A stretch of DNA of 64,000 nucleotides from Candidatus Methanoperedenaceae archaeon (GTDB taxonomy: Archaea > Halobacteriota > Methanosarcinia > Methanosarcinales > Methanoperedenaceae): positions 1 to 64,000 of the forward strand of contig CAVWCX010000003.1 in the NCBI GenBank assembly GCA_963753595.1, read 5' to 3'. Within the stretch, counting starts at the first letter, position 1. Each line of letters starts with the position of its first letter. The position numbers were made by a program, and so were the translations under genes. Below are positions 29,174-59,524 of the stretch, in pieces. A model generated the notes under the pieces. It was not told the origin of the DNA and did not search any database. It was given only the letters and a program-made list of their open reading frames with translations.

Positions 29174-31574
29174 CTACTTTAACTCCACAAAGAAATAAAC
29201 ATTGCCTTCGTTCTTGATCTTTGAAGGTATACCGGTTTCATAATTATGAGATGAATTTCCAAGGCCCGCTGTATCAACATTGATCCCTGTTATAAACACA
29301 AGTTCTTCACCATCGTCCCCATAATCGCCATCCCCATCATCTTTAGTTGTGTCCCATAGTATTCCTGTAATGAAGGTAGAATTCTCTACTGAAGTATAAT
29401 TGGTGGTATTTGTACTATTGACGATCGCAACCTGGTCTATTGTCCTCCCATAAACCGTGAAACTCGTGACGTTCCTGGGGGCAGTACCATTCAGGCCGAA
29501 AAGTTGTGTGATATTATTGTTAATAAAACCTGTTGCATTGCTGCTTCCAGGTGTCATGTTGAGAAGCTCATCTGCTCTTTGGAAATTGTCCTGTGCTATT
29601 TCCCCGTTCTTTTTCCTTCCCATGGCCTGAAGATTGTTAAAATCAAAGTACGGGATGTTGGAAACAAAAACATTTCCCTGATTGGTATCCCATTTCCAGT
29701 TGATGAGAGAATTCCCCGTTTTCCCTCCGAGGGTAATGTTCCCGGAAATGTTCCCATAGTATTTTTGCCATGCAGAGACATTAATATTTTTTGAAGCATT
29801 GTTGTTACTATCATCAGTCTCGACAAGGGTATTTTCAGGATCTGTTTTTATAGAAATATTGTGGGTACCTATGATAGAATTCCAATAAATAGTGGCATTA
29901 TGACTTTCCCCTGCGCTGATATTTGTGATAGTGGCATTTGCTATATTATTGCCAGGATCCGGAGGGCCGTCATAGAAACTCACATTAATATTACTTGCAT
30001 CTCCCAATCCGCTATTATAAACAGTAGCATTTATGGTTACATTCACGCTTTCTTTGACCTCGCCATTTTCATTTTCAGATGGTATATAGGAGAAAGAAAT
30101 GTTTTCCTGCGCCATAACAAGGTCTGGCTTGTAAATAACGTTAATTGTCCAGTTCCTGTGGTCATTGTCAATGCTGCTGCTTATCGTTGTGTTGATGTAA
30201 TGCAATCCGGATTCTAAAAAATTTTTCGAAAAATTATCAAAATCATGTAACTGGTCTGTACCGTCATAAGTCCAATTATAGGTGCCCGTATGGTTCGCAG
30301 TAACATTGAATAGGACACTTTCATTAATAAAAACCGTTATATCGGCACTTCTGTCATTTGTCCTGTTATTGCTCCAATCGGTAATTGTAAGTTCAGGTTC
30401 GATCCAGGCGGTCATGTTGATACTATTATTGGCATTGCCTGAATAATCGTACGCTGTTATCGTAAGGTTCATAAATTCCGTGCTCTGTCCCCTGTCCGCT
30501 ATTATTGCCGTATTGATCCAATAGTCTCCCGTAAGGGTCAGCATAGCCTCATTTATAGTGGAGTTTATCGCAGAAACATTGACAGTTGCATTATTTACTC
30601 CAGGGAAGGCATCATTTATAGTGGCGTTCAAAGTCAGAAAGCTGCCATTTGGCGATATTAAATTATTTGTATTTGAGGTGACCACAGGGGGATCATTATC
30701 AATGCCTGCTGTCATGTTAGTGCTATTATTGATGTTGTTTGCATTATCATAAACCGTTATCATAAGGTTCTTCAGATCCATTGGTATTATTCTTATCAGC
30801 TATTATGGTCGTATTAAGCCAATAAGGCCCGGTAAGAGTGAGGAACGCCTCATTTATAGTGGAGTTTACCGCAGAAACGTTGACAGTTGCATTGTTAACA
30901 TCGGCTAAAGCATCGGTTATGGTCGCGTTCAAGGTCAAAACGGTACCGGTTTTAACATATAAGTTGTTGGTATTGGATGTTACGGATGGTGGAGTTCCAT
31001 CCACGATCAGGGAAAGGAGGGGGCTTATAATGGAATAATTGTAGAAAGGGGATTCGGATTTAGTTGATCCATATCTTGCCTCTGCAACGATATAATATAT
31101 ATTATCACTATCAGGAGCAGTAATTTCCCACGAATATGTCTGATTGATCGTAAGATCAATTCCAGCCTTTTGATTATAATTATATGGATCTATATTATTT
31201 TTTTCATCATTGGTTATGATCCAGCCATCATTCTTGATATTTCCTCCCGGATTTGAATAATTAACAAGCATTATTCCCATGGTATCATTTATATTTGAAT
31301 ACCAGGCTACTTTTGTGGTAACATTTATATTGATGTTAGTTTGTCCCGGAATATAAGGGCCTGCCGGGCTTTTTGATATTGAGATCGTCCCGCCGGGATC
31401 GTTCGTATGGCATTGACCGCCGCAATCAGGCCCTGCATTATCTTGTTGATCGACTGCAATAGATTGATTCAGGTCCTGGTCAGAAACTCCGCCATCCCGG
31501 GCAGCCGCCATATCTGCAAGCAGAATTGGAAGAAATATCAGAATCAGCAGCCAAAGCAATATATGCCGTTTCAT
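29174..31574 (-). CDS. Large secreted multidomain protein (CX3CH N-domain, two Ig-like repeats, CARDB, C-terminal WQ-domain); split by one indel near 30775
   Basis: ORFs 30747-31574 and 29174-30781 join inside an internal repeat (IADKNNTNG/LKNLMITVYD vs IADRGQSTEFMNLTITAYD); signal peptide; CARDB KPDL...DPENTLVETDDSNN. Confidence 0.75.
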
Positions 31575-31846
31575 ATATACTCACCATTTTTTTTCATATA
31601 TTACCATCAATTGGGGAATGCTATTTGTTTTTTTAATTTATCCTTCATCCTGCATAAGTTACTTCTGTCTTTATTCATTATTAGGGCCTATTACATCATG
31701 ATGAGCATGATAATATATATCTTTTTCCCCGAAGCGTTATATAATACTGAAGTCATATATTTATGATACGTATAATGATGAAAATCCACCGAAGTTGGAT
31801 TAAAAAAGATTTGCAATATATGCAAAAAATACGGAGGAATCAAAAT

Positions 31847-32563
31847 ATGAAGAATGGAAACTTTAATACAGTGCTGTCAACAGCTGTATTGGTTCTGGCG
31901 TTATTATTCATGGCTGAAACTGCATCTGCTGCCATAGGTGACAGCGATCTGGATCAAGCCTTATTAATTAACGGAACAAACGAAACCCAACCCCTCAGGA
32001 CGGGTGAACAGTACAATCAATCAGTCGGAGGATATATTACCCAGATTGATTTGTATGAACAAACTAACCAGACCCAGAATTGGCAGGGCTACTTTGGTAA
32101 CGTATCAGGAAATATAACATTGAGTGGCGCTGGCGGTACCGAGATGTATAATTGGACGGTCAATGTCACGAACAGATCTATTTATGCAATAGATAATGCG
32201 ACTTTTGCGGCCTGGGACACACTCTTTCCCGCTAATATCACCAACCTTGACGCAATCTGGTTTGGCAGTGAAGTAATGCCAGATACGGTCAAGAATACCT
32301 ATAAACCAGGTGATGGAAACAGGACTTTCGTAGATACATCAATAAATGCATCCCATGTGCATACTACAAGTGGTTTTTTAGACCATGTGATCCAGTCTGT
32401 TGATACTGATAATGCCAACCTGACTAAAGGGGAAGTATTATGGGCAGCCGTCGTTGTAGACCCCAAACTAAACTACAAAAACCAGTATTCAAACTATGAA
32501 TTGCTTGTTCCTGTAAATAAAACCGCACCTAATAAATACTATTTCTACATGGAACTTCCGTAG
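31847..32563 (+). CDS. Secreted, sequon-rich uncharacterised protein (WQGYFGNVSG family)
   Basis: GGAGG RBS before ATG 31847; Sec signal ending ETASA; C-terminus YYFYMELP. Confidence 0.85.
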   Translation: MKNGNFNTVLSTAVLVLALLFMAETASAAIGDSDLDQALLINGTNETQPLRTGEQYNQSVGGYITQIDLYEQTNQTQNWQGYFGNVSGNITLSGAGGTEMYNWTVNVTNRSIYAIDNATFAAWDTLFPANITNLDAIWFGSEVMPDTVKNTYKPGDGNRTFVDTSINASHVHTTSGFLDHVIQSVDTDNANLTKGEVLWAAVVVDPKLNYKNQYSNYELLVPVNKTAPNKYYFYMELP

Positions 32564-32567
32564 GCTT

Positions 32568-32598
32568 AGTTGGATCCTTGATCCAACTTCTTTTTTTT
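32568..32598 (+). terminator. Hairpin + T-tract terminator
   Basis: AGTTGGATC-CTT-GATCCAACT then TCTTTTTTTT. Confidence 0.7.
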
Positions 32599-32638
32599 CA
32601 GGCGAAGGTTTAATATATAAGAGTATATTATCATAGTA

Positions 32639-34381
32639 ATGATGAGTTTAACGTACAGATTATTAGTATTATTTTTGCTGGGAATATCGATACTAAGCGC
32701 CTCTGCAGCACCCGATCAGGTGGTTATTGATTCCGCAGACTGGCAGGATGTTTACCTTGGGGCACATTATGGCGGTTTTAATAATATAAAATCTAATTTT
32801 CTCATAAGCAGTGAAGATGCTTCAATACTCCTTGGAACATTGGATACAACTAAAAAAAACATACTCCTTTTGGAATCTGATAAAGCGCCTCTTGCTTTCA
32901 GTTATAAGACCAGCCTTGAAGGCGCTGGTTTTACGGTCGAGGAAATAATTGCCTCAGGAACCGCGCTTAATATGGAGCTTGCTAAAAGGGCAAATACAAG
33001 TGATTTCATAGTTGTAGACGATTCGACCGGATATAATGCCATTTCTATTGCGCCTTATGCTGCCCAGGAAAAATATTTCGTTCTTTTTGCAAATAAAAAA
33101 AATATAGATGAATTATACCCCTTCCTGAAAGCCAATGGTGTAAGTAGGATGATAATTTATGGTTTTTCGGATATAGAGGTCAAAAGCAAACTGGCTGAAT
33201 TCAAACCAGTTGTCATCAATAATGGATCAAGGTTCGATAATAATATTGACCTGTTGAAAAGATATAAAAGCATCCAGCAGCTAACCCTCACAAACGGGGA
33301 ATTTATCGAAGAAGGTATCATGGCAGGAAAACAACCCGTACTTTTGATCGGAAGAGAAAGAGTTCCCGACAGCGTGGTTGAATATATAAAAGAAAGCGGC
33401 ATAAAAAATGGCCTTGTCATCGGAACCGAACTTTCAGGTGTTGCATATCAGTTAAAACATGCAACAAATATGACTGTTTTTGTAAAGTTCGGCCAGGGTT
33501 TAGCAAATGGAGGCTCCTCCGAAGTCAAAGCGCTTGACATGTTCCCTATTCCGAAGTATGAGCTTGCCATTGATATTAATTCGGTTAAATATAATCGGGC
33601 TACAAAGGATCTTGAAGTGACTTATGAAAATAAGGGAAATATGGGGGCATACTTGAGGTCATCGATCGAAATTTTATCTTCAGGAATGAGAATAACAGCC
33701 CTTGGAGACCGGGAATCTGTCTATGTGAACCGCGGCAGCACGTTAACTGTAGCTTATAATACAGAATTGAACGGCCAGAACCTGACTGCAAAATTCACAA
33801 CGATGTTCGGTGAAGTCCCGGGATCGTTTGAACGTATTATTTCTAAGGAAATGAACATTGACATTATAGAGATATCAGATAGTTCATCGCTTAATATTTC
33901 AAAGGTTTCCTATGATAAAAAAGCTCATAAGATAAAGGTGGGGATCACGAATACAGGTGCAGTCAAAGCATATCTCAAGACCCAGGTAAAGTTCCTGGTA
34001 TATGGTGAAGAAACAGTTTTGGCCCAGGATAAAGCATTGCTTCTTGAACCAGGCGCCACAAAGGATGCAGTTTTTATCACAACCTTGAGCGACACAAATA
34101 TTGAAGAGAATCCCGATATCCATGTTCGCGTAAATTATGGTGAGAGAGAATCTTCACTGGTAAAAGTCATTGAAGGGGATTATCCCCTCCAGATATCAAC
34201 TGATTATGTTACCCCGATAATTGTATTAGTCCTGATTATAGTAGTAATATTGTTCCAGATGCAAAAGAAGAAAAAACTTGGGAAGTATTTTAAAAAATCG
34301 AAGGAAGGGAACACAGATGTATCCGATGAAATTGAGAGCACGGATGTACCTGCTACCGAAGATGAAACAAAAAATACCTGA
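32639..34381 (+). CDS. Membrane-anchored surface protein with CWB2-like repeats and Ig-like domains
   Basis: Signal peptide; NAISIAPYAA..VLFA / QPVLLIG...LVIG / NGSRFDN resemble cell-wall-binding repeat 2; C-terminal TM + KKKK. Confidence 0.75.
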   Translation: MMSLTYRLLVLFLLGISILSASAAPDQVVIDSADWQDVYLGAHYGGFNNIKSNFLISSEDASILLGTLDTTKKNILLLESDKAPLAFSYKTSLEGAGFTVEEIIASGTALNMELAKRANTSDFIVVDDSTGYNAISIAPYAAQEKYFVLFANKKNIDELYPFLKANGVSRMIIYGFSDIEVKSKLAEFKPVVINNGSRFDNNIDLLKRYKSIQQLTLTNGEFIEEGIMAGKQPVLLIGRERVPDSVVEYIKESGIKNGLVIGTELSGVAYQLKHATNMTVFVKFGQGLANGGSSEVKALDMFPIPKYELAIDINSVKYNRATKDLEVTYENKGNMGAYLRSSIEILSSGMRITALGDRESVYVNRGSTLTVAYNTELNGQNLTAKFTTMFGEVPGSFERIISKEMNIDIIEISDSSSLNISKVSYDKKAHKIKVGITNTGAVKAYLKTQVKFLVYGEETVLAQDKALLLEPGATKDAVFITTLSDTNIEENPDIHVRVNYGERESSLVKVIEGDYPLQISTDYVTPIIVLVLIIVVILFQMQKKKKLGKYFKKSKEGNTDVSDEIESTDVPATEDETKNT

Positions 34382-34401
34382 CCAAAATTAAATTCTATCT
34401 G

Positions 34402-35373
34402 TCATCGGTTAAGCCCGCCAGTCATCTTTGAACCGATATCTTTTGATTTGAGGTTAATTGCTATAATTATTTTTCCGATAACGATGAAAATAACAACACC
34501 AATTGCTACCTGTAAGGGATATAATAGAAGCATTCCTCTGGGAATAATAGTCGGTAACAATGATATCGCTGCGGCAGGAGGAAAGACAAATTGCATCCGA
34601 TGGAATAAAAACAGAATCCATATAACAATGCATCCAGCTGTAATCCATAAAGGCCAATTTAATAAAAAGTGAGTTACTTCAACCCACAGTATCCCTGAAA
34701 TGGATGCAAGCAAAAGCAACAAGAGAAGATGTACCGGCTTTTGGCAGACCTGGCCGCAGGGATGTGCAAATTCAATAAATGTAACGATCAATGGTGGTGA
34801 TATAATATAAATCCATTTTGATTGAAAAGCAATTATTAAAACAAAAACGACCCCGATAAAAAGCATTAACCAGTGAATGGGTTTCAGTGTTTCCCGGGTT
34901 TTTCGCTCCTCTTTATTTAAATATAAAGCGGCTGAATGCTCACTAAAATGAAAGCGAGCCAACAAACCCCTGCTGGCATAGACGCACCCTGAGAATATGA
35001 AGACAGAAAGCGGATAATAAAGACTGTCGAAATTTAAAAAAATCGGTAGAATAGCGGCTGATATCGATGGTAAAACGTTCGAACGCAACAGGTATAACTG
35101 CAAGCCGACAAGGAGAAAAGTAAAAGCAATTAGAATTTCGGGATCATAAGGCAGAAAGTGAAGTACTCCTACACCGGTTATTGCAGCTAAAGTGGGCGAC
35201 AAACATAAGTAAAGAGGTTTATCTGCCAATGGTGAATTCTCTATCAACCAGGCCGCAATAATTAAAGTTGCGATTTCAGGAAAAATAATTTCTTCGCCAA
35301 TAGTCGCAGATGCTACAAAGAACATAACAACTACTAACAAAACTGCTGCAAGGGGCGCTATCATTCTTTTCAT
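34402..35373 (-). CDS. HPP-family-like integral membrane protein
   Basis: IIFPEIA, ISPPL, FPPAAAISLLP; multi-TM. Confidence 0.7.
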   Translation of the reverse strand: MKRMIAPLAAVLLVVVMFFVASATIGEEIIFPEIATLIIAAWLIENSPLADKPLYLCLSPTLAAITGVGVLHFLPYDPEILIAFTFLLVGLQLYLLRSNVLPSISAAILPIFLNFDSLYYPLSVFIFSGCVYASRGLLARFHFSEHSAALYLNKEERKTRETLKPIHWLMLFIGVVFVLIIAFQSKWIYIISPPLIVTFIEFAHPCGQVCQKPVHLLLLLLLASISGILWVEVTHFLLNWPLWITAGCIVIWILFLFHRMQFVFPPAAAISLLPTIIPRGMLLLYPLQVAIGVVIFIVIGKIIIAINLKSKDIGSKMTGGLNR

Positions 35374-35417
35374 TTTATAATTCTATACCAGACTGTGAAA
35401 TCATTATGGAGCCTCGG

Positions 35418-36056
35418 TTATTTTCCTGCAAGCATCTCCCTGATTTTTTGTCCTGTTTCTTTTGCTTTCTCAATGACATCCTTTTGGTCTTCTATTGCAA
35501 TATATTTATCCTTTGATGGCACAGCTCCTTTGCCGAACAACAGCGGAACTCCGCTTATTTTGCAGGCGCCTCCATATCCGCATGAAAGGCAGGCGATGTT
35601 TCCTGTTCCGCTTACTTTCCCGACAACATTGATCCCTTCCATTTGCATAAAAGCAGCGATCTGGTCAGCGGCCTGGTCTACGCTTGGTATTCCCCGCCCG
35701 ACCCCGACTGCTACTGCCGCTCCAATTTTACCTTTATTGAGCATTCTTTGATGATGCATGGAATACATGCGTTCAGTCAGCATTTTTGTTCTTGAGTCAA
35801 GAGTACCATAGGTAGGATATCCGCCAATAACAAGAGCTGCACATTCTTTGATCTTATTTTCAATGATATGCCAGTCGTCCTGCTGCCTGCAAATGTTGTC
35901 CCTGGCACAGCCAAGGCACGCCCTGCACGGATGTATATCGTATTCTGAAAGTTTAACGAATTCATAATCAAGACCCGTTGCTTCAAGAACTGTTTTGACC
36001 AGCCTGTCGGTATTACTGTTTTTAACAGGGCTTCCGCTTATTCCTAACACTTGCAT
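35418..36056 (-). CDS. Flavodoxin-fold iron-sulfur flavoprotein-like protein
   Basis: GISGSPVKNSNT; CRACLGC....C; extra CLSCGYG..C. Confidence 0.85.
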   Translation of the reverse strand: MQVLGISGSPVKNSNTDRLVKTVLEATGLDYEFVKLSEYDIHPCRACLGCARDNICRQQDDWHIIENKIKECAALVIGGYPTYGTLDSRTKMLTERMYSMHHQRMLNKGKIGAAVAVGVGRGIPSVDQAADQIAAFMQMEGINVVGKVSGTGNIACLSCGYGGACKISGVPLLFGKGAVPSKDKYIAIEDQKDVIEKAKETGQKIREMLAGK

Positions 36057-36784
36057 TTTGAATCGCCTGCTGTTTTCCTGCTGTTCTTGATCCTCTCTTT
36101 AATAAGTCTCCCGATCCTTTCAGCTTCTGCCATTACTTCGGGTTCATCCTTCACAGACCTATAACTTTTCAGGATCCTGGCAGAACCATGCTGGTATGGC
36201 TTGTTATCAGGCAGCAGTTCAAGATATCCTTTATATGCCTCTTCAACGCCAAGGTTCATCCCGGTCAATTCTTTCGAGTATGCGTTCCAGACAGTATAAT
36301 TGCACGTCTCACCGGGCCCGCACACAAAACAGCATGGCGTACCTTTTGCTGTCATACCCCCGACTATCTCCATGCCCCCGGCGCGAAGACCATTTCCCAG
36401 CCATTCACCAACCATTTTTTCAGCAGCCACTCCGACAGCGACTGTTGCGGCAAGTTTCCCCCCTGTAAGGAGTTTTACGTGCCTTTTTGAATAAAGCCGC
36501 TCTATGAACGCTTTTGTAAAAGCGCTTGCTGCGCCGTAGAATGTTGATGAACCGACAACGATAGCATCTGCTTCCATTACCTTTTTTGAAAGCCATTTGA
36601 AATCGTCATTGATTATGCATTCATTGGTCTGGACGCATTTCATACATGCGATGCAGGGACCTACTTTTATAGATGAGAGCTTGAAAAACTCGGTTTGTGC
36701 GCCTGTGGCGTCAAGTATTGCTTTTACCAGCGTATCTGTGTTGCTGTCCTTTGTCGGACTGCCGCTTATTCCTATAACTTTCAT
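36044..36784 (-). CDS. Flavodoxin-fold iron-sulfur flavoprotein-like protein
   Basis: GISGSPTKDSNT; CIACMKC....C; CCFVCGPGETC. Confidence 0.85.
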   Translation of the reverse strand: MKVIGISGSPTKDSNTDTLVKAILDATGAQTEFFKLSSIKVGPCIACMKCVQTNECIINDDFKWLSKKVMEADAIVVGSSTFYGAASAFTKAFIERLYSKRHVKLLTGGKLAATVAVGVAAEKMVGEWLGNGLRAGGMEIVGGMTAKGTPCCFVCGPGETCNYTVWNAYSKELTGMNLGVEEAYKGYLELLPDNKPYQHGSARILKSYRSVKDEPEVMAEAERIGRLIKERIKNSRKTAGDSKCKC

Positions 36785-36813
36785 AAAATATACCTCTTAA
36801 ACCAATTTCTTAT

Positions 36814-37342
36814 CTAAGTCAGCGGTACAGCAAGAGAATCCAGGAATTTATTGTAACCTGTGAACAGTTCCATGACTCCAAGCACCTCTACGATCTGGCT
36901 GTCTGTAAGACCAAGGGATTTTAGTTCATCTGTTTCAGCGTCGGTAATCTTATGCGGAGTGAGCGTCGCTTTCTTTGCATATTCCAGGATCTTTTTGTCC
37001 CCGGGCGAAATCAGGGGACTTTCAATGTTTTTTGTCAGGTCATCTATTCTTTCCTGGCTGAATCCCATCATCGAAAGCGCCATTGAGTGTGAAGCCCACA
37101 GTATTTACAGCTATTTGCCGCAGATACAACTACTGCTATCTGTTCCTTAAGCTCCCGCGGGGAGGTCCCCGCCCATCAGCAATACCTTTGTCTTTTCCCA
37201 GTTCACTTTGCAGAAGCGCCGGGAAGTGGGCATAGGTCTTGAAAAGGTTCGGGACCATTCCGAAAGCTGCTTCTATATCTTTATAGACCGCTCCGACTTC
37301 GTCACTTGATTCGTAATTTTCTATAAGTTTTATTCTTTTCAT
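36814..37342 (-). CDS. AhpD/carboxymuconolactone-decarboxylase-family peroxidase-related protein (frameshifted)
   Basis: Pieces FGMVPNLFKTYAH, LKEQIAVVVSAANSCKYC, ASH, TPHKIT..ELFTGYNK across 2-3 single-base indels. Confidence 0.75.
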
Positions 37343-37375
37343 GTTGATCACTTTTTAAGATAAAATAAACAGGGC

Positions 37376-37615
37376 CTAGAGCCCTGCTCTTTCAACGATT
37401 ACATCCGCAACCTTTTTTGCGTTCTTAAAAGGAAAATCGCTTGCTTTCAGCAGTTTTCCTGCCTGGCCTGCCGTTACTTCAAGGTCGCCTGCCTTGCATG
37501 TGGTATTGGCGCCGTCCGGGAATGCAGACAGGAGCTGTTCCGGCGTTTTTATCGGGAACTTTGCGCCTGCAAGTCCTCCTACGATCTGTGCATGAATCTC
37601 TTCTTTTACGCTCAT
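37376..37615 (-). CDS. MTH865-family protein
   Basis: FPIKTPEQLLSAFPDGANTTC...DFPF. Confidence 0.85.
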   Translation of the reverse strand: MSVKEEIHAQIVGGLAGAKFPIKTPEQLLSAFPDGANTTCKAGDLEVTAGQAGKLLKASDFPFKNAKKVADVIVERAGL

Positions 37616-37776
37616 GATTTTTCCTCCGTCATTGCTTTTATCTCACCTGCTGTTTTTGAGATAGGGCAGCCGCTGGCATGTTTTTCACATTTGAAACATG
37701 CGCTTTTTACGGCATCTAACGACTTCTGCGCTTCTTCTTTTGTTACTTTTTTGTTTGTATATTTCCATTCAGGCAT
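37612..37776 (-). CDS. 54-aa Cys/His microprotein
   Basis: MPEWKYTNKKVTKEEAQKSLDAVKSACFKCEKHASGCPISKTAGEIKAMTEEKS; GAGGTGA RBS; ATGA overlap with next gene. Confidence 0.75.
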   Translation of the reverse strand: MPEWKYTNKKVTKEEAQKSLDAVKSACFKCEKHASGCPISKTAGEIKAMTEEKS

Positions 37777-37923
37777 TTAATTCACCTCGATTACATATTG
37801 ACAGGTTATTGACATATACTTAGCCGTCATAAAACTATACCAACTACATTTTAATATACAAATATGACCTTTAAGGTTGTAATAGAAACCTTTTTAGCCT
37901 GATAAGACAAAACAACTTCTTAT

Positions 37924-38763
37924 ATGGTAAATAAAAAGGAGGACTCTTACAAAGAGATCCTCGAAATAAAAAAAAAGCTGTATGAGATACATAATGACAT
38001 GAAGCGATTTGTTGAGCAGTCAAGCCAGCAGCATCTTGAACATGTACTTTCGGGCTCCCGTACTAATTTTACGAATGCGATCATCGGGCATGTTCTTGAT
38101 GATATCGAAGGCGGTCTTGAAAGTAATATGGTCAAAAAATGCCAGATGCGGGATACCTGCAAATCCAACTTCACAGGATTCCTGCAAAAGAATGCAAGCC
38201 TGATAAACAATGAAAAGGTCGATGAAGATATTATTTTGAAAAACCAGTCGGATCTAAACGGTATGAGGAGCAGTGCCCCATCGAAGCAATGCGAGAAATG
38301 TTTTTCAAATGTCCAGACGCTTTTCGGGAAGCAGGTCGATCTGATGCGGTCACTGCAAATCTATAACACAGATAAAGAAAAGAAACAGGATATATTAGTA
38401 TTGCCTGACGAACTGGTTGTTAATGACATACTTGAGCCGATATCCAATAAACAGCGCCTTCAAATAATGAAAGCAATAGCAATAGAGACAAAAACCTTTT
38501 CAGCGCTTTCCGGACTCACAGGACTCAGGGGAGGGAATTTACTTTTCCATTTGCAAAAACTGCTTGACAGCGGAATGATCTTACAGCGCCATGAGCGGGG
38601 AGACTATATGATCACGGATAAGGGATTCAAGGTCTTAAGAAGTATAGGTGATATGTATTCAGTATTGAACCCTGAATTTAATGTATTCAGATATAAGGTG
38701 AAGTTATGGATACTTTGGATAATGAAAATAAGACGGAATTCCAGACCGTGGAAGAGCTTATGA
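37924..38763 (+). CDS. ArsR-type winged-HTH regulator with N-terminal Cys-containing domain
   Basis: PISNKQRLQI...LRGGNLLFHLQKL...RGDY; CQMRDTC, CEKC. Confidence 0.8.
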   Translation: MVNKKEDSYKEILEIKKKLYEIHNDMKRFVEQSSQQHLEHVLSGSRTNFTNAIIGHVLDDIEGGLESNMVKKCQMRDTCKSNFTGFLQKNASLINNEKVDEDIILKNQSDLNGMRSSAPSKQCEKCFSNVQTLFGKQVDLMRSLQIYNTDKEKKQDILVLPDELVVNDILEPISNKQRLQIMKAIAIETKTFSALSGLTGLRGGNLLFHLQKLLDSGMILQRHERGDYMITDKGFKVLRSIGDMYSVLNPEFNVFRYKVKLWILWIMKIRRNSRPWKSL

Positions 38764-39149
38764 TGACCCCTGCGCCTGAATTCAATGATGTTATGCGCTG
38801 CGTTTTTAAGATAAAGGATTATGAGATCGAGGTATATTTTTATCTTCTTGACCATCCCGGATCTGCTATCGCTGAAGTTTCAGAGTCTCTTAAAAAGGAT
38901 AGAAGTTCAATCCAGCGCTCACTTCAGACATTGATGGATAAAGGTATGATTGAACGAAAATTCAGGGTACTGGGCGCTGGCGGGTTTACTTATATTTACA
39001 CATCTGTCCCGATTGAGGAAACAAAAATGATAATGAACAGGGAACTTAATGTCTGGTACAGGATGATGGGACAGCTCGTAACCAATTTTGAAAAACATGA
39101 TCAGGTGTGCTTATTTTGCTCACAACCTGAAGAAGGATATTATCTATAA
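38706..39149 (+). CDS. TrmB-like HTH transcriptional regulator
   Basis: EIEVYFYLL...EVSESLKKDRSSIQRSLQTL...GGFTYIY. Confidence 0.8.
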   Translation: MDTLDNENKTEFQTVEELMMTPAPEFNDVMRCVFKIKDYEIEVYFYLLDHPGSAIAEVSESLKKDRSSIQRSLQTLMDKGMIERKFRVLGAGGFTYIYTSVPIEETKMIMNRELNVWYRMMGQLVTNFEKHDQVCLFCSQPEEGYYL

Positions 39150-39198
39150 GGTAAATATAGAATTTGTCTGAAAAAGGCATTAAACAGGAGTAAAGAAT

Positions 39199-39555
39199 AT
39201 GATAAAAGTAGCAATTGTAGTTTTAGCAGATACGGAAACGCATGGGGATATGGCCAGAGTTCACAATGCACTTCTGGCAGCAAAAGAATTCAAAGATGCA
39301 AAAGATGAATTTAAGCTCATCTTTGACGGGGCTGGAACCAAATGGATCAAAGAACTTTCCAAACAGGACCATATGTTTCATGAGTTGTTTGATTCAGTAA
39401 AAGGCAAATCAACAGGAGTTTGCAGTTTTTGTGCCGGTGGTTTTGGTGTCAAAGAGTGTGCAGTAGAATCTCACATTTCTCTCAGTGAAGAATATGAGGG
39501 ACATCCGAGCTTCAGGGAATTGATAGCAGAGGGTTACCAGATAATTACATTCTGA
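39199..39555 (+). CDS. DsrE-family protein
   Basis: LIFDGAG, VCSFCA, GYQIITF. Confidence 0.8.
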   Translation: MIKVAIVVLADTETHGDMARVHNALLAAKEFKDAKDEFKLIFDGAGTKWIKELSKQDHMFHELFDSVKGKSTGVCSFCAGGFGVKECAVESHISLSEEYEGHPSFRELIAEGYQIITF

Positions 39556-39597
39556 GTCCAGAATGCTCATTGAAAAATCGATTGAGCGGATTTATTT

Positions 39598-39984
39598 TTA
39601 AGTCCGTGTTTTTAATAATTCACTCTTTTTTTTGCTTTTTTGCTTTTTTTCTTTAACACAATCCTTGAAAACGGGTTCAAACATATTGCAGAAATATTCA
39701 AATGCCTTTTTTGATGTTATTGTGCCCTTTTCTGTTAGGGAATAAATAATATTCCTCCCGTCTTTCTGTGATGTTACAAGACCATTATTCTGCAGATGTT
39801 TTAAAGCAGGATATATCGTTCCCGGAGTGGGTTTGTTTCCTTTCATTTTTTCAAGTTCCTGCGCAATCTCCTCGCCGTACATGGGTCTTTTTGAGAGAAA
39901 CCACATAATCAAAAACGATAGCATCCCCCTCATATCACAGCATTCCGGTGCACATATTTCTTCATGGCAATTATCATCTGTCAC
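39598..39984 (-). CDS. PadR-family transcriptional regulator
   Basis: PMYGEEI...PGTIYPALKHL...YSLTEKG; N-terminal CCDMRG. Confidence 0.88.
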   Translation of the reverse strand: MTDDNCHEEICAPECCDMRGMLSFLIMWFLSKRPMYGEEIAQELEKMKGNKPTPGTIYPALKHLQNNGLVTSQKDGRNIIYSLTEKGTITSKKAFEYFCNMFEPVFKDCVKEKKQKSKKKSELLKTRT

Positions 39985-40075
39985 TGGCTGGTATTGGATG
40001 TCCGATATATTTAAATATTATTATTGGGTATGCGATACATCTGATCTTAACAGGGTCAGTTCAAAGAGGAATAAT

Positions 40076-40756
40076 ATGAAGATATTAGGAATTGTAGGCA
40101 GTCCGAGAAAAGGCAGCAGCACTGACCTTCTTGTGGACATGGTATTAAAAGGAGCAATATCCAAAGGAGCAGAAGTTGAAAAAATAAACATTAGTGATCT
40201 GAATATTGCATTTTGTACCGGGTGTATGGAATGCAGGCAAAATGGTGTTTGCAGAATAACAAAAGAGGATTCTGATGATGATCTTGCCATGATAATTGAA
40301 AAAATAACGGAGGCTGAAGGGCTTGTGCTGGCATCCCCGGTATATATGCGGTATGTCACTGGACAGTTTAAAAATTTATTTGACAGGCTGGTATCACAGA
40401 TAATCATTACACCTGGAAAAAATCCTCCTGAAATTAAATGCCGTATCCCGGGGAAGAGGAATAGTATTGTCATTGCAGCCTGCGGGAACCCGGATATTAA
40501 AATGGCAACTGAGACGCTGGAATTCCTGAAGAATGCAGCATTCGTGTACGGTAACGGCGGGACTGTTGTTTCGGAACTGGCAGCAGGAGGTTTAATGCTT
40601 CCGGGGCAGATAAATGCAGATAAAAGAACACTATCGGGTTTGGCATCAAATCTCAATATCCCTGAACCAGCAGTGGATAATATGATGAAACAATATAAAT
40701 CGATTAAGGAACAGGCATACCAGGGCGGGCAGAAGCTTGCATTATTAAAAAGGTAA
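40076..40756 (+). CDS. Flavodoxin-fold iron-sulfur flavoprotein-like protein
   Basis: MKILGIVGSPRKG, CTGCMEC....C, SPVY; GAGGA RBS before ATG 40076. Confidence 0.88.
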   Translation: MKILGIVGSPRKGSSTDLLVDMVLKGAISKGAEVEKINISDLNIAFCTGCMECRQNGVCRITKEDSDDDLAMIIEKITEAEGLVLASPVYMRYVTGQFKNLFDRLVSQIIITPGKNPPEIKCRIPGKRNSIVIAACGNPDIKMATETLEFLKNAAFVYGNGGTVVSELAAGGLMLPGQINADKRTLSGLASNLNIPEPAVDNMMKQYKSIKEQAYQGGQKLALLKR

Positions 40757-40761
40757 TTTTT

Positions 40762-41427
40762 ATGGATGTTACCGATGCCCTGTATTCACGTTATAGCGCC
40801 AGGGCTTTTAAACCCGATTCAGTTGAGAAAGAAACAATCATCAAGATTCTGGAAGCTGCAACCCACTCACCCTCATGGGCTAATACACAGCCATGGGAAA
40901 TATTCGTCGCTGGCGGGGATGCTTTGAACAGGTTGCGCCATGCCTATTTAGAAAATTTTCATAAAAGTTTATCCGGCGAATCGGATATACCAAGGCCGCA
41001 ACAATGGCCTCCTGCCCTGCAAAAGCGCATGGAAGAACTGGGAGCGGAACGCTTTAAAACTGCAGGTATAGGGCGAGATGATATAGTTGCAAGGCAGGCA
41101 ATCTTTGAGGCGAACTATAGGTTTTTCGGGGCACCAGCGGTCATATACCTGTGCATGGATCGCACCCTTACACGATGGTCAATATTTGATATCGGAATGC
41201 TGGCTCAGAGCATTATGCTGGCGGCACAGCAGTATGGCCTGGGCTCGATTCCTGCTTATGTTCTAGCGTCTTATCCTGATCTGATCCGCGCCGAACTGAA
41301 AATCACGGATGACCTGTCAATCATAATTGGAATTGCGCTTGGCTACAGCGATGCACAACATCCGCAGAATAAGTTCAGAAGTCCCAGGCGACCCATACAG
41401 GAAGCTGTCAGGTTTAAGGGCTTCTAA
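40762..41427 (+). CDS. Nitroreductase family protein
   Basis: RYSARAF, SPSWANTQPW, FFGAP, IALGY. Confidence 0.9.
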   Translation: MDVTDALYSRYSARAFKPDSVEKETIIKILEAATHSPSWANTQPWEIFVAGGDALNRLRHAYLENFHKSLSGESDIPRPQQWPPALQKRMEELGAERFKTAGIGRDDIVARQAIFEANYRFFGAPAVIYLCMDRTLTRWSIFDIGMLAQSIMLAAQQYGLGSIPAYVLASYPDLIRAELKITDDLSIIIGIALGYSDAQHPQNKFRSPRRPIQEAVRFKGF

Positions 41428-41609
41428 TCCTGCATTTTTGAAAGGTCAACGGAAACCAGAACATGGATTACATCCGTTAACAAATGAACGTGAAGGCTTG
41501 TATATAAAAGTATATAGTTAGTATATTTTTATAACGGCTAAGTATATAAACCATTTCCGGCTAATTAATAGACTGGGAAATTCGAAATAAAATTATTGGG
41601 AGGTAAAAT

Positions 41610-42065
41610 ATGGTGGAACCTAAAATATTAATAGTGTATGCATCGAGGACAGGTAACACAGAAAAACTTGCACAGGCGATTGCTGAAGGGGCAAGGAGCG
41701 CCAGCGGGGTCAGTGTAGAGTTAAAGAAAGCGAAGGATACTAAACCATCAGATGCTGGCGCTGATGCGTTCGCATTTGGTTCGCATTCGGCTTTTGAATA
41801 TATGGCGGGTGAGCTTAAAAGCCTGTTTGAAGATTTGTATCCTGTAAGAGATAAACTGGCGGGCAAACCTTTACTGCTTTTCACTACGGGACAGGGAGGG
41901 CAGGTTTCGGCTCTGGCATCAATAGATAAGGTGGCGGGCGTGTTCAATCCTTCCTGGGTTAAACCGGGTGTAGCTGTGCAGGGGGCGCCTAAAGATGAAG
42001 ATAAAGCAAAAGGAAGGGAAATGGGCAAAAAACTTGCAGAGGCTGCAAAGAAAAAACTAAAATAA
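41610..42065 (+). CDS. Flavodoxin (WrbA-like short form)
   Basis: YASRTGNTEKLA FMN-phosphate loop. Confidence 0.85.
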   Translation: MVEPKILIVYASRTGNTEKLAQAIAEGARSASGVSVELKKAKDTKPSDAGADAFAFGSHSAFEYMAGELKSLFEDLYPVRDKLAGKPLLLFTTGQGGQVSALASIDKVAGVFNPSWVKPGVAVQGAPKDEDKAKGREMGKKLAEAAKKKLK

Positions 42066-42098
42066 TCACTTCGATTGCCATTTTCAAAGTTCAATCCG

Positions 42099-42144
42099 GG
42101 TCAGGGACTGGTATTAAGTTATTTTAATAAGGCTCTCCCTGACC
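42099..42144. terminator. Stem-loop downstream of flavodoxin gene
   Basis: GGTCAGGGA...TCCCTGACC with inner TATTAA/TTAATA. Confidence 0.45.
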
Positions 42145-42365
42145 GTATAAATGTACAACTGCGTTTATCCTGATACCGCCGTATCCTGTTTTGGGTTCTT
42201 AAAGGGATAATGCTTGCTTTTAGCAGTTTTCTGGAATGCTAAATTGATTTGAACCTTAAATATATAGGTTGTGACTGATTTACTCACTACCTGGAGAAGG
42301 TTATCTTACATTAAGATATTTATTGGATTGTCTGAAAAAGACACCTAATAAGGAGGTACAAAAAT

Positions 42366-42464
42366 ATGACAGGTTGTTGCACACCAAAAAAGACAACTGC
42401 GCCGAATGACGCATGTCCATGCGGATCAGGAAAGAAATTCAAGGATTGCTGCGGAAAGAAATAA
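42366..42464 (+). CDS. 32-aa stand-alone SEC-C motif peptide
   Basis: MTGCCTPKKTTAPNDACPCGSGKKFKDCCGKK; AGGAGGT RBS. Confidence 0.85.
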   Translation: MTGCCTPKKTTAPNDACPCGSGKKFKDCCGKK

Positions 42465-42498
42465 AGAAAGAGTAAATAAAGGAACAAGGTGATAATTA

Positions 42499-42627
42499 AT
42501 GTCAAAGATGTGTACAATGGAAGGCTGTAAGACTTCCGAAGGAATGTGCAATCACGAAAAAATGATGGCTGTAATAGTAATGGTCGCCATCGTAGCGATT
42601 GCTGCAAAATTACTGAATGTGTTATAA
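42499..42627 (+). CDS. 42-aa Cys/Met-rich membrane-anchored microprotein
   Basis: MSKMCTMEGCKTSEGMCNHEKMMAVIVMVAIVAIAAKLLNVL; AAGGTGA RBS. Confidence 0.7.
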   Translation: MSKMCTMEGCKTSEGMCNHEKMMAVIVMVAIVAIAAKLLNVL

Positions 42628-42676
42628 AAGGAGATATTCTGCCTTTTTAAGATAAAAACAACCCGGAGGAAATTAA

Positions 42677-43243
42677 ATGAAAAATTGCTGCTGTGAAATA
42701 GATGATAGCACAGAATGTCAGGGTGAAAGACAATCCGAGAAAAACCAAAACATGACAGAAAACGAATTACAGCATTCTTGCTGTGATGTCATTGAGCTTG
42801 AGGCTTCTATTTGCAAAGAATGCGGCAACACCGGGAAACAAGTTTTAGAAATAACATTGAGAAGTATGGTCAAAGAACCAGTGTTTGTAGCTATCGAAAA
42901 TCCTGATGGGTTCTATTTTTGTGAGACATCCGCCTGTGAAGTTGTTTATTTCAATAACGAGCAGCAGGTTTATTTGCATAAACAGGAAGTAAAAGTAAAG
43001 GTTGGCATAAAAGAAACGGAAAATCCTGTTCCAGTATGTTATTGTTTTGGATGGACGAAGGAGAGGATTTTTGAGCAGATCAGGCAGCTGGGATATAGCA
43101 CTGCTGTCAAGGAAATAGGTGCAAAAATAAAAGCCGATGAGTGTGACTGTGATAAAAAAAATCCTTCCGGAAGATGCTGCCTGGGCGAAGTTAATAAAAC
43201 AGTTAAAAGGGGACAGGAGATATACGGAATAAAGAAAAATTAG
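42677..43243 (+). CDS. CopZ N-terminal-like Zn/[2Fe-2S] metallochaperone
   Basis: CKECG, YFCETSAC.VVYF, PVCYCF, CDCDKKNPSGRCCLG. Confidence 0.82.
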   Translation: MKNCCCEIDDSTECQGERQSEKNQNMTENELQHSCCDVIELEASICKECGNTGKQVLEITLRSMVKEPVFVAIENPDGFYFCETSACEVVYFNNEQQVYLHKQEVKVKVGIKETENPVPVCYCFGWTKERIFEQIRQLGYSTAVKEIGAKIKADECDCDKKNPSGRCCLGEVNKTVKRGQEIYGIKKN

Positions 43244-43536
43244 ATTCTGTAGCCTTAACCCTTGATGCTTCATCGATTTGCATGGCTCAAAGCTATTTTT
43301 TATGTTGATTTTATTGTTGAAAATCATTATAACAATGATACTTATATAAACGCCAATGAATAATATTATATATCATATACTCATTTTATAAATATAACTC
43401 TGCTACAGCATGCAGGTTTGGAAAGATAAGTGTGTGTGAAAAGATCAATGTAAAGTTCAAGGCAAAGCCTGTGGCAGGCCTTTCATGAAATGGCAGCTTG
43501 GGCTTTCTGAAAAGGTGTGTAAATGTATAAGTTGGA

Positions 43537-44217
43537 GTGACATTGAGAGGTTTGTCCATAAAAATAAGTAAAAAGGTAATAAAAAATATACTGTTACTTA
43601 TAATTATTTGTATATCAATTTCGGCAGGTGAAGGAGCTGTTCAGGCTAATGGTGGATATTTGACCCGGACTGATCTTGCAGTGAATTCATATTCAGAGCA
43701 CTGGCTGGGATTTTATGGGATGATCACAAATAACACGATGACGAATAAACCCTGATGAACAATACGATGACGATCGGGAATTTTAATGTAAAAAACAATA
43801 ATTCTATTAAATATATTTTTCCGGGTATATCTATAGATAAGGGTGATTACCTGATCATAACCACTTCGCCTTCACCCCCTGACCTTTCAGGATTAAAGGC
43901 AGGTAATATTGCATCCATTGATGAAATAACAGTGGGTGATGAGTCGGGTTCAAATACATTCACAAATTATTCTAACTACCTGATACCTTCTTCAGGAGCT
44001 TTACTTGCTGATGTGCCATCAATTTACATGTCAGATGGCATGGGGTATTATTCCAGGGAAGCATTATTCGCAGATATTAATGGAGATCCGGTATTTGCTG
44101 TTCAGGTAGAGCCCCGTTCCGACAAAAATAATGAAACATATTATGAAATTTTTTCAATTTATGTTGCCTGAAAATGGCAGACCGTATTATTTATTTTACC
44201 TGCCATCTGACATATAA
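43537..44217 (+). CDS. Third paralogue of the WQ-domain secreted family (two indels)
   Basis: ANGGYLTRTDL...SEHWLGFYG; ESGSNTF; restored C-terminus FQFMLPENGRPYYLFYLPSDI; breaks at CCC (~43750) and T-run (~44150). Confidence 0.65.
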
Positions 44218-58417: not shown

Positions 58418-59524
58418 ATGAAAGAGCTTCTCTCCTGGGACCAGACACTTTTCAAAGACAGTGAGTTATTTGAACTTGACCATATCCCTGAGCATTTCCT
58501 TCACAGGGAATCGCAACTTTCATCCCTCATGCATTGCATCCGGCCTGCACTGGGCAAAGGCCGGCCGCTTAACAGTCTTTGCATAGGCGCGCCGGGAACA
58601 GGAAAAACAACAGCGGTGCAAAAGGTATTCGAAGAGATAGAAAAACATTCTGATAAAGTGGTGCCGGTGCTTGTCAATTGCCAGGTCAATTCAACACGGT
58701 ATGCTGTATTTTCACAGATATTCAAAAAACTTATAGGTTACGCACCGCCAGCCTCGGGCGCCTCGTTTAAGAAAATATTCGGCGAGGTTGCAAAGTATAT
58801 AGTCGAGCATGAAAAAGTCCTCCTTGTGGCGCTTGATGATATGAATTACCTGTTCTACGAGATGGAGGTCAATGATGTCCTGTACTCACTCCTGAGGGCT
58901 CATGAAACATATCCCGGTGCGCGGATGGGCGTTATTGCAATACTTAGCGACACAGGTGTTCCCCATATACTTGATCCCAAAGTTGAATCTGTGTTCCTTC
59001 CTGAAGAAGTGAAATTCCCGACATATTCGATCGATGAGATACGCGATATCCTGTCAAACCGCGCAAAGTTAGGGTTTTACCCTGATGTGCTTGACACAAA
59101 CGTTCTTGAAAACATAACACAGCATACTTTCGCGCTTGGGGATCTGCGCGTGGGGATAGATCTATTAAAGCGCTCAGGACTTAATGCAGAAAAGCGTGCC
59201 AGTAAAACAATTGCCCTGGAAGATGTTGAGTCAGCGTATGAGAAATCCAGGCTTGTGCACCTTTCCTACATGATGCGTACTTTGAAAAAGGATGAAAAAA
59301 TTCTCCTTGGATTAATAGCGGATTCCCCCCGGTCCAATTCAGGCGATCTTTATGAAAAATTCCACGAAAAGACCTCTCTCGGGTACACGCGTTTCTATGA
59401 ATTGCTTAACAAGCTTGGCTCTTTTAAGCTTATAGATGCCGATTTTACAGGTAAGGGGGCACGCGGGAGAAGCCGCCTTGTCAAGCTTCGATTCAAACCT
59501 GATGAAGTAAGAATGAGATTGTAG
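58418..59524 (+). CDS. cdc6: ORC1/Cdc6-type replication initiator
   Basis: PEHFLHRE, GAPGTGKT, VNC, LDD, GDLRVGIDLL, C-terminal wHTH RGRSR. Confidence 0.93.
   Translation: MKELLSWDQTLFKDSELFELDHIPEHFLHRESQLSSLMHCIRPALGKGRPLNSLCIGAPGTGKTTAVQKVFEEIEKHSDKVVPVLVNCQVNSTRYAVFSQIFKKLIGYAPPASGASFKKIFGEVAKYIVEHEKVLLVALDDMNYLFYEMEVNDVLYSLLRAHETYPGARMGVIAILSDTGVPHILDPKVESVFLPEEVKFPTYSIDEIRDILSNRAKLGFYPDVLDTNVLENITQHTFALGDLRVGIDLLKRSGLNAEKRASKTIALEDVESAYEKSRLVHLSYMMRTLKKDEKILLGLIADSPRSNSGDLYEKFHEKTSLGYTRFYELLNKLGSFKLIDADFTGKGARGRSRLVKLRFKPDEVRMRL

Follow-up and report, generated by a model that had tools for sequence, protein, structure and literature searches.

A conserved archaeal gene cluster and its proposed donor-strand surface fibre in Methanoperedens, ANME-2 and DPANN genomes

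Background

In the Fim and Pap systems (FimA/FimH, PapA/PapG), the shaft subunit carries an N-terminal extension, and the tip adhesin has an acceptor domain and no extension; the donor strand contains a conserved glycine. A group of archaeal genes whose products may be organised in a similar way is located in the stretch of DNA analysed here (the window), which covers the opening 64 kb of contig C3 in a Candidatus Methanoperedenaceae archaeon genome of 2.89 Mb in 37 contigs. The nearest relatives of the window genes are labelled Candidatus Methanoperedens. The cluster includes gene A, proposed to encode the shaft subunit of a surface fibre, gene B, proposed to encode its tip or adhesin, gene C, proposed to encode a base or assembly factor, and a broken short paralogue of A. 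The resemblance to chaperone-usher fibres lies in the extension present on the shaft protein A, in its replacement by other domains in the tip protein B and in the conserved glycine. There are also differences: no immunoglobulin (Ig)-like pilin is found among the fold matches of A, the modelled donor strand of A appears to lie parallel to the first strand of the core, and an outer membrane is absent from archaea. Neither a PapD-like chaperone nor an usher was detected in the Pfam scan of the cluster genes, no dedicated search of the genome having been made.

Donor-strand filaments of archaea include Sulfolobus threads (PMC9715654), the AbpA bundling pili of Pyrobaculum (PMC9245690) and the CanA cannulae of Pyrodictium (PMC12518558), as presented in the portions of these reports considered here. 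On the basis of those portions, the A family resembles all three in its Sec-exported, glycosylated, non-type-IV subunits, in a proposed N-terminal donor strand and in having no known chaperone-usher machine. It differs from them in showing neither a sequence relation (no PDB match) nor a fold match (best Z 2.9), in having alongside it a dedicated protein of tip type, whose heads can be exchanged, and a conserved CWB2/Ig membrane protein, and in belonging to other lineages, namely DPANN and the anaerobic methanotrophic (ANME) archaea ANME-2d and ANME-2. Compared with the TasA/AbpA/CanA superfamily (Peptidase_M73, PF12389), A has no corresponding sequence match. No chain reached Z 3 against the A model, a missing match with which a jelly-roll fold is still compatible, and a donor strand is found in A as a prediction, in the three-copy model described below.

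Another comparison is provided by the Pam pili of the Candidate Phyla Radiation (CPR), the subject of a preprint (PMC13278184). In the part of that text considered here, which also mentions PapD, PapE and PapK, donor-strand pilins are accompanied by membrane-anchored two-domain beta proteins proposed as chaperones; there is an anchoring terminator and no trans-envelope machine, and the hosts are an ultra-small episymbiont lineage. As far as that part goes, Pam pilins differ from A in being Ig-like and bacterial, and C additionally has three CWB2-like repeats.

A literature search returned no published description of the A family. Makarova et al. 2019 (PMC6393860) report, in the part considered, a secreted DPANN family, cls.004306 (NEQ255), located beside S-layer-like genes, which may or may not be the A family. 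The corresponding part of a paper on sheaths (PMC11576556) makes no mention of Methanoperedens, ANME-2 or DPANN, and that of a paper on Methanoperedens nanowires (PMC13748539) deals with OmcZ-type nanowires and type IV pilins only. The A family is described in none of these portions, nor in that of PMC5898192. The cluster is real, conserved and undescribed.

A domain shared by A and B

The features of A and B, in window coordinates, are as follows.

31833..31837, + strand: ribosome-binding site of A, GGAGG, 9 nucleotides (nt) upstream of its ATG (from the sequence)
31847..32563, + strand: gene A, proposed shaft subunit, 238 residues, secreted and sequon-rich (open reading frame, ORF, and translation)
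31847..31930, + strand: Sec-type signal peptide of A, residues 1-28, ending A-S-A (inspection of the sequence and alignment A1)
32027..32053, + strand: proposed donor strand of A, G-G-Y-I-T-Q-I-D-L, residues 61-69 of the precursor and 33-41 of the mature protein
32081..32110, + strand: first core strand of A, W-Q-G-Y-F-G-N-V-S-G, proposed acceptor edge
32537..32560, + strand: C-terminal strand of A, Y-Y-F-Y-M-E-L-P, with which the protein ends
32568..32598, + strand: terminator 3' of A, a hairpin of 9 pairs (32568-32588) followed by a T run
30747..31574, - strand: 5' piece of B, 275 residues, which includes the signal peptide, a single C-G-G-Q-C-H and the first repeat of about 100 residues
30774..30776, - strand: frameshift in B, one extra base (frame change in tblastn)
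29174..30781, - strand: 3' piece of B, 535 residues, with the second repeat, an Ig-like region, CARDB and the C-terminal domain; proposed tip or adhesin
29792..30082, - strand: CARDB domain of B, residues 234-330 of the 535-residue piece (Pfam PF07705)
29177..29770, - strand: C-terminal domain of B, homologue of the A core without the donor strand (hhalign)

The longest ORF covering A opens at 31763, but its relatives begin at the methionine of 31847. By inspection, the signal peptide is followed by a polar mature N-terminus; the mark of archaeal type IV pilins and archaellins is a class III signal peptide and a hydrophobic N-terminal helix that stays in the mature protein. A preliminary description of this locus had presented A as a secreted protein of 238 residues with 15 N-X-S/T sequons, a GGAGG site and a hairpin terminator of its own, and these elements, together with the motifs quoted for the protein, are found in the sequence and its translation. 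The number of sequons stands out against shuffled sequences (15 vs 4.1 +/- 1.8 in 500 shuffles), as it does for the 3' piece of B (41 vs 15.8 +/- 3.2), and the cytoplasmic neighbours have 0 to 3. Terminator-like sites over the whole region are no commoner than in shuffles (5 vs 4.1).

BLASTP aligns A with B over 25 residues only, 15/25 being identical. When a profile of the 33 near-length relatives of A was compared with a profile of 53 B C-termini, hhalign returned 98.4% and an E value of 5.8e-15 over 160 columns, extending from the W-Q strand to the last residue. Judged from these profiles, the core of A and the C-terminal domain of B share one beta-rich domain of about 160 residues, a homology that the preliminary description had proposed. 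It had also stated that B lacks the GG-x-I-T segment, and indeed the CARDB domain of the window B ends a few residues ahead of the W strand.

The segment ahead of the shared domain distinguishes the two proteins. A-type proteins have a conserved extension of about 45 residues before the core, including a strand of the form G-G-x-[IV]-T-x-[IL]-x-[LF]. This motif is located upstream of the W strand in 125/142 A-type ORFs and in 106 of 121 representatives; the B-type figures are 0/39 ORFs and 1/42 proteins. In 37 of the 39 B-type ORFs, the W strand follows within one to three residues of the end of the last CARDB-like strand. The C-domain itself is always at the extreme C-terminus, all B-type proteins ending in a conserved aromatic strand and E-L-[KR]. 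In a FastTree analysis of 193 domains, the B C-domains (41/41) fall in one starred set (100*), indicating that the split between strand-bearing and strand-less domains is old.

The A family is large. An exhaustive HMMER search of 1.84 billion sequences gave 944 representatives with E <= 1e-3, each standing for a cluster at 50% identity, and 537 with E <= 1e-10; the 944 come mostly from DPANN archaea, Methanoperedens and ANME-2. Only three columns are invariant in an alignment of 147 sequences: the second glycine of the motif, W51 and G56 (mature numbering). Y203, F205 and E208 of the C-terminal strand are nearly invariant. In the family consensus (alignment A2), the donor strand mostly reads G-G-N-[IV]-T, which would place an N-glycosylation sequon at its start; the window A has Y in place of N. 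Pfam (E <= 0.1) and NCBIfam contain no family for A, its profiles A1 and A2 gave only chance-level matches to PDB sequences (E 0.98 and 0.2), and ESM Atlas matches are limited to unnamed Woesearchaeota clusters. A tblastn search of the genome with A detected no further paralogue; the broken short copy was recognised only through its relatives.

Predicted strand exchange between copies of A

AlphaFold2 (AF2) modelled A from 147 diverse alignment rows with a predicted local distance difference test score (pLDDT) of 88.4 and a predicted template modelling score (pTM) of 0.81. The confident core, mature residues 51-207, is formed by eleven strands and two short helices, and is bounded by the W strand (E51-56) and the C-terminal strand (E204-207). 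Residues 1-50 have no regular structure in the monomer (pLDDT 55-79). No fold neighbour was found for this model: Foldseek against PDB gave a best E of 0.12 with a TM-score of 0.14, the VIA wide search of 48,161 chains a best Z of 2.9 (root-mean-square deviation 4.7, 120 aligned residues; by the VIA yardstick, models without clear match typically reach Z 7-8), a second VIA look a best Z of 2.4, and BFVD a best E of 0.051.

In the multimer prediction, the N-terminal segment is placed on a neighbouring copy. With three copies of mature A, the interaction prediction score from aligned errors (ipSAE) was 0.58, 0.56 and 0.48, compared with 0.00 in three controls; contacts agreed to at least 95% between runs, and the pLDDT of the partner was at least 76. 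In the scored copy, residues 25-48 contact residues 47-75 and 200-209 of the next copy, and residues 18-23 reach a third. The inter-copy pairs 33-50, 36-53, 38-54 and 40-56 indicate that the donor strand would run parallel to the W-Q-G-Y-F-G strand. Since the link between the motif and the W strand is only eight residues long, parallel pairing in cis seems unlikely.

Distribution and gene neighbourhood

GTDB species genomes contained 226 relatives of A, and 79 loci were kept for neighbourhood counts. Their labels are distributed as follows.

DPANN (Woese-, Pace-, Nano- or Diapherotrites-type labels): 51/79 loci
Methanoperedens or Methanosarcinales labels: 16/79 loci
Methanomicrobia label: 1/79 loci
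Methanobacteriota label: 1/79 loci
Nitrosotalea label: 1/79 loci
Unlabelled: 9/79 loci

Relatives in DPANN archaea, which the preliminary description had mentioned, are thus confirmed and account for 51 of the loci. ORFs within 6-kb flanks were scored with hidden Markov models (HMMs) of A and of the B C-domain, and with C; one of the 79 loci was missed by the A filter.

A-like present: 78/79 loci
B-like present: 40/79 loci (lower bound)
C-like present: 20/79 loci
A and B: 39/79 loci
A and C: 19/79 loci
A, B and C: 12/79 loci

Since the end of the 6-kb flank truncates many B ORFs, the B count and the B lengths (up to 1866 residues) are lower bounds. The absence of C from a locus does not mean its absence from the genome: for ten A-holding genomes without C at the locus, a whole-genome search located it elsewhere in nine (E 1e-176 to 1e-211). 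Among 150 other genomes, sampled evenly from the phylum to which the window belongs, A gave one weak 31-residue match and C none. In terms of gene content, the three families co-occur in genomes of DPANN, Methanoperedens and ANME-2. The number of A-like copies is one in 24 loci, two in 43 and three to five in 11.

Gene B: frameshift, heads and repeats

B had been described as one gene of about 800 residues. In the window it consists of two overlapping ORFs, 30747-31574 (275 residues) and 29174-30781 (535 residues), separated by one extra base. Its relative P0035 (698 residues, 87-91% identical) is continuous across the junction. The 5' piece aligns with P0035 residues 1-165 in frame +1, and tblastn with P0035 places the change of the window from frame +1 to +2 between reverse-strand nt 798 and 800, or about 30774-30776. 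In public run X1, a contig of about 96% identity has exactly one base missing at 30774. The continuous relative and the one-base difference in X1 together indicate that B is a frameshifted gene in this assembly. Runs X2 and X3 span 30774 without the deletion, but weakly: the X3 contig stops 18 nt beyond, and the X2 contig is unlisted. A programmed frameshift was considered and rejected, no slippery motif being seen and relatives reading straight through. As read from the ORFs, the 3' piece would be without a signal peptide.

One contig of run X4 jumps from 30539 to 30841, omitting 301 nt that correspond to one repeat of about 100 residues plus the extra base, which indicates that the number of B repeats differs between strains. 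Within the window, the two copies of the repeat share about 72% identity over 71 residues.

B-type proteins have a constant order, with a variable head, a CARDB-like domain and the C-domain. In the window, CARDB is well supported (PF07705, E 1.8e-12, 47.8 bits vs a cut-off of 22.7). The heads differ among the 53 C-domain relatives and include beta-helix/NosD, CarboxypepD_reg, LamG, MG2 and Big domains, and lengths vary even among close Methanoperedens relatives (583, 1288 and 1414 residues). P0059, a LamG-headed B-type protein, comes from a bin labelled Tenericutes, the only bacterial label seen, and this label may reflect a binning error. The first 111 residues of the window B weakly match the NCBIfam entry 'choice-of-anchor V' (E 0.008), and a single C-G-G-Q-C-H (CX3CH) is located near the mature N-terminus (window 31400-31420). 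The mature N-termini of A and B had been reported to resemble each other. They do so over about 7 residues, but B orthologues with other heads do not share this stretch, so that the likeness is weak.

Gene C

32639..34381, + strand: gene C, 580 residues, proposed base or assembly factor (ORF)
32711..33538, + strand: CWB2-like region of C, about residues 25-300 (profile match)
34208..34261, + strand: predicted transmembrane helix near the C-terminus of C, about residues 524-541 (hydrophobic stretch)

In protein C, a signal peptide is followed by three CWB2-like repeats and two Ig-like domains, and then by a predicted transmembrane helix and a charged tail. Positions 121-278 of the family profile match the CWB2 module of Clostridioides difficile Cwp6 (PDB 5j72_A, residues 156-327) with an E value of 8.9e-8. 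The likeness to Cwp6 concerns the N-terminal three-repeat region; C differs in being archaeal, in its predicted C-terminal helix anchor and in its two Ig-like domains. The window protein is a remote relative of CWB2 (PF04122), scoring 16.3 bits, under the cut-off of 24.9, and PF04122 is matched at E <= 0.01 by 4/27 members of the C family. The hydrophobic helix (about 524-541), followed by a Lys-rich tail, is kept in position in the 27 C sequences (alignment A3). These results bear out the earlier description of C as a CWB2-like protein of 580 residues with a C-terminal membrane helix.

Conservation is much stronger in C than in A, with 27-38% identity between Methanoperedens and DPANN and 24 invariant columns. 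Some source records call its homologues FlaF; the window C scores 22 bits against the ArlF/FlaF model (NCBIfam NF052590), far under the cut-off of 110. In 5 of the 27 C homologues, a cytoplasmic zinc ribbon (Zn_Ribbon_1 / DZR) follows the helix; in the window C, the tail is acidic. From its architecture and its co-occurrence with A, C could be a base, an anchor or a chaperone-like factor.

The short A-like paralogue and an insertion of about 9 kb

43537..44214, + strand: broken short A-like paralogue, fourth gene of the cluster (frames +1, +3 and +1)

In the Methanoperedens relatives L001 and L004, an intact short A-family gene, coding for a secreted protein of 189-206 residues, directly follows C. 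Its product has a G-G-Y-I-T/A-R-I-D strand, a W-L-G-F-Y-G motif and a C-terminal aromatic strand. The window copy retains a signal peptide, a G-G-Y-L-T strand, W-L-G-F-Y-G and a C-terminal Y-Y-L-F-Y-L-P, and is interrupted by two frame changes with stops between them (tblastn and three-frame translation). In a blastn comparison with L001, similarity ends at 34254 and resumes at 43268, the intervening 9 kb or so being extra in the window. ORFs in 34255-43267 code for a 323-residue membrane protein, helix-turn-helix (HTH) regulators and iron-sulfur flavoprotein-like, nitroreductase-like and flavodoxin-like proteins.

Other genes in and around the loci

A secreted, cysteine-containing protein of about 330 residues follows the A-like genes in 50/79 loci, which takes in most of the DPANN ones (for example L008:6692-7660 and L011:6626-7627); it has no Pfam family and was not found beside the Methanoperedens clusters. 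A protein of about 205 residues of the ArsR HTH type (PF01022, E 3.6e-6) is located among the DPANN A-like genes in 30/79 loci (L064:5388-6008) and is a candidate dedicated regulator. In a subset of DPANN loci, including L014, L024, L049, L057, L060, L064, L067, L073, L075 and L079, three further proteins are encoded beside the A-like genes: an ATPase of the HerA/FtsK type with a membrane anchor (DUF87, E 2e-11, with 15 ORFs in 14 loci), a coiled-coil protein of about 285 residues (14 loci) and a polytopic membrane protein that contains an H-E-x-x-H motif (11 loci). Such loci may represent a second, machine-linked cluster type.

Elsewhere in the window, a Cdc6/Orc1 gene at 58418-59524 (Cdc6_lid, E 4.8e-17) lies near a turn in cumulative GC skew at about 56 kb, and a replication origin may be near.

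Discussion

The reading favoured here is that the cluster encodes a Sec-exported, N-glycosylated, non-type-IV surface fibre assembled by donor-strand exchange, with A forming the shaft, B the distal tip and C acting at the membrane; its probability is put at roughly one half. After cleavage of the signal peptide, the N-terminal strand of A would enter the preceding subunit between the W-Q-G-Y-F-G and Y-Y-F-Y-M-E-L strands, and repeated insertion would produce a head-to-tail polymer of A. B could accept a strand but could not donate one, which would confine it to the distal end, where it would display a strain-specific binding head. The short paralogue located after C in relatives might be a minor, adaptor or terminating subunit. 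C, with its CWB2-like and Ig-like ectodomain carried on a C-terminal membrane helix, could hold the fibre at the membrane or assist in its assembly. If the assembly is right, this strain would make no more than a fibre of A, together with C, that has no tip.

The donor-strand model agrees with every computational test run and remains a prediction. The preliminary description, which had proposed a filament with tip and base, had named three outcomes that would speak against it: a domain folding as a complete monomer with no strand exchange, families that do not occur together, and a match to a characterised enzyme or S-layer protein. None of them was observed. In the three-copy model, the N-terminal segment lies on the next copy (ipSAE 0.56 vs 0.00); a B-like gene is found within 6 kb of an A-like gene in 39/79 loci and a C-like gene in 19/79; and searches of Pfam, NCBIfam, PDB and fold collections returned no such protein for the A domain. 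The filament interpretation stands to this extent, and is weakened by the frameshift in the tip gene of this genome.

Several points weigh against a donor-strand fibre. The support is computational throughout, no RNA data set being listed among the public runs that contain the sequence. The A model depends on the alignment, an AF2 run with 21 close sequences having reached a pLDDT of only 50.4 and been discarded. The ipSAE mark used was reached by 20/30 solved homo-pairs and 1/23 single chains in calibration; the three-copy job is unlike that calibration (three copies, custom alignment), so that passing the mark supports binding without showing it. The head-to-tail order is an interpretation of the contacts of one scored copy. 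C has no donor-like motif and does not match the A profile. Most DPANN loci have two or more different A-like paralogues and no obvious major subunit, a pattern that a short hetero-oligomer would explain as well as a fibre. Finally, both B and the short paralogue are broken in the window, and the full system may be non-functional in this genome.

The paralogue numbers also speak for a different arrangement, in which one or a few A-type adaptors tie a giant B adhesin to C (B-A-(A')-C) by strand insertion of the kind described above, in a short docking complex with no long polymer. Two to five different A-like paralogues beside one giant B are usual in DPANN loci, almost every genome concerned also carries C, and the Methanoperedens relatives hold just A and one short paralogue. 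Such a complex is nevertheless judged unlikely: the A-A interface confidently predicted is homomeric, A has the strong ribosome-binding site and the terminator of its own that are expected of a subunit needed in excess, and the features missing from C, a donor-like motif and a match to the A profile, count against docking as well. The constant position of the shared domain can be read in yet another way, as a C-terminal module for surface retention or sorting, acting for example via C or envelope glycans and without strand exchange, A being a head-less member with another role. The extreme C-terminal location with its conserved aromatic strand and E-L-[KR], the free swapping of heads and the co-occurrence of the domain with the CWB2-like glycan- or wall-binding module of C would all fit. 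Left unexplained are the conserved N-terminal extension specific to A, with its invariant glycine, the predicted insertion in trans and the excess of small head-less members over B-type proteins, and this explanation appears improbable.

Strand exchange can also make sheets, and A might accordingly belong to a two-dimensional layer, either an S-layer or a sheath-like lattice; the preliminary description had left room for a lattice. The secreted family of Makarova et al. 2019, which is DPANN-specific and lies beside S-layer-like genes, would point the same way if it were the A family. PF07752 (DUF1608), the canonical S-layer family of Methanosarcinales, has no match in A, B or C and 17 matches elsewhere in the genome, so that A would not be needed as an S-layer protein. 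Moreover, A gave a single weak 31-residue match among the 150 other genomes of the phylum and neither a sequence nor a fold match to solved S-layer proteins, and a lattice is considered very improbable.

With regard to the donor-strand fibre, a wider proposal can be made with slightly less assurance, at a little under even odds: that it represents a new fold-level class of archaeal donor-strand fibre, made of a shaft subunit, a strand-less tip with heads exchanged from strain to strain and a conserved CWB2/Ig membrane protein, common to the ultra-small DPANN and the methane-oxidising ANME-2d/ANME-2 archaea and serving cell-cell or cell-mineral attachment in their consortia. DPANN archaea and ANME methanotrophs depend on contact with other cells or minerals, and to our knowledge almost nothing is known about their contact structures. 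The A gene set is widespread, is named in no curated database and has a core domain without recognisable fold relative. If it does form a true donor-strand fibre, it would extend the short list of known archaeal non-type-IV filaments by a new structural family, and the tip protein with its exchangeable heads would provide a handle on host or substrate specificity.

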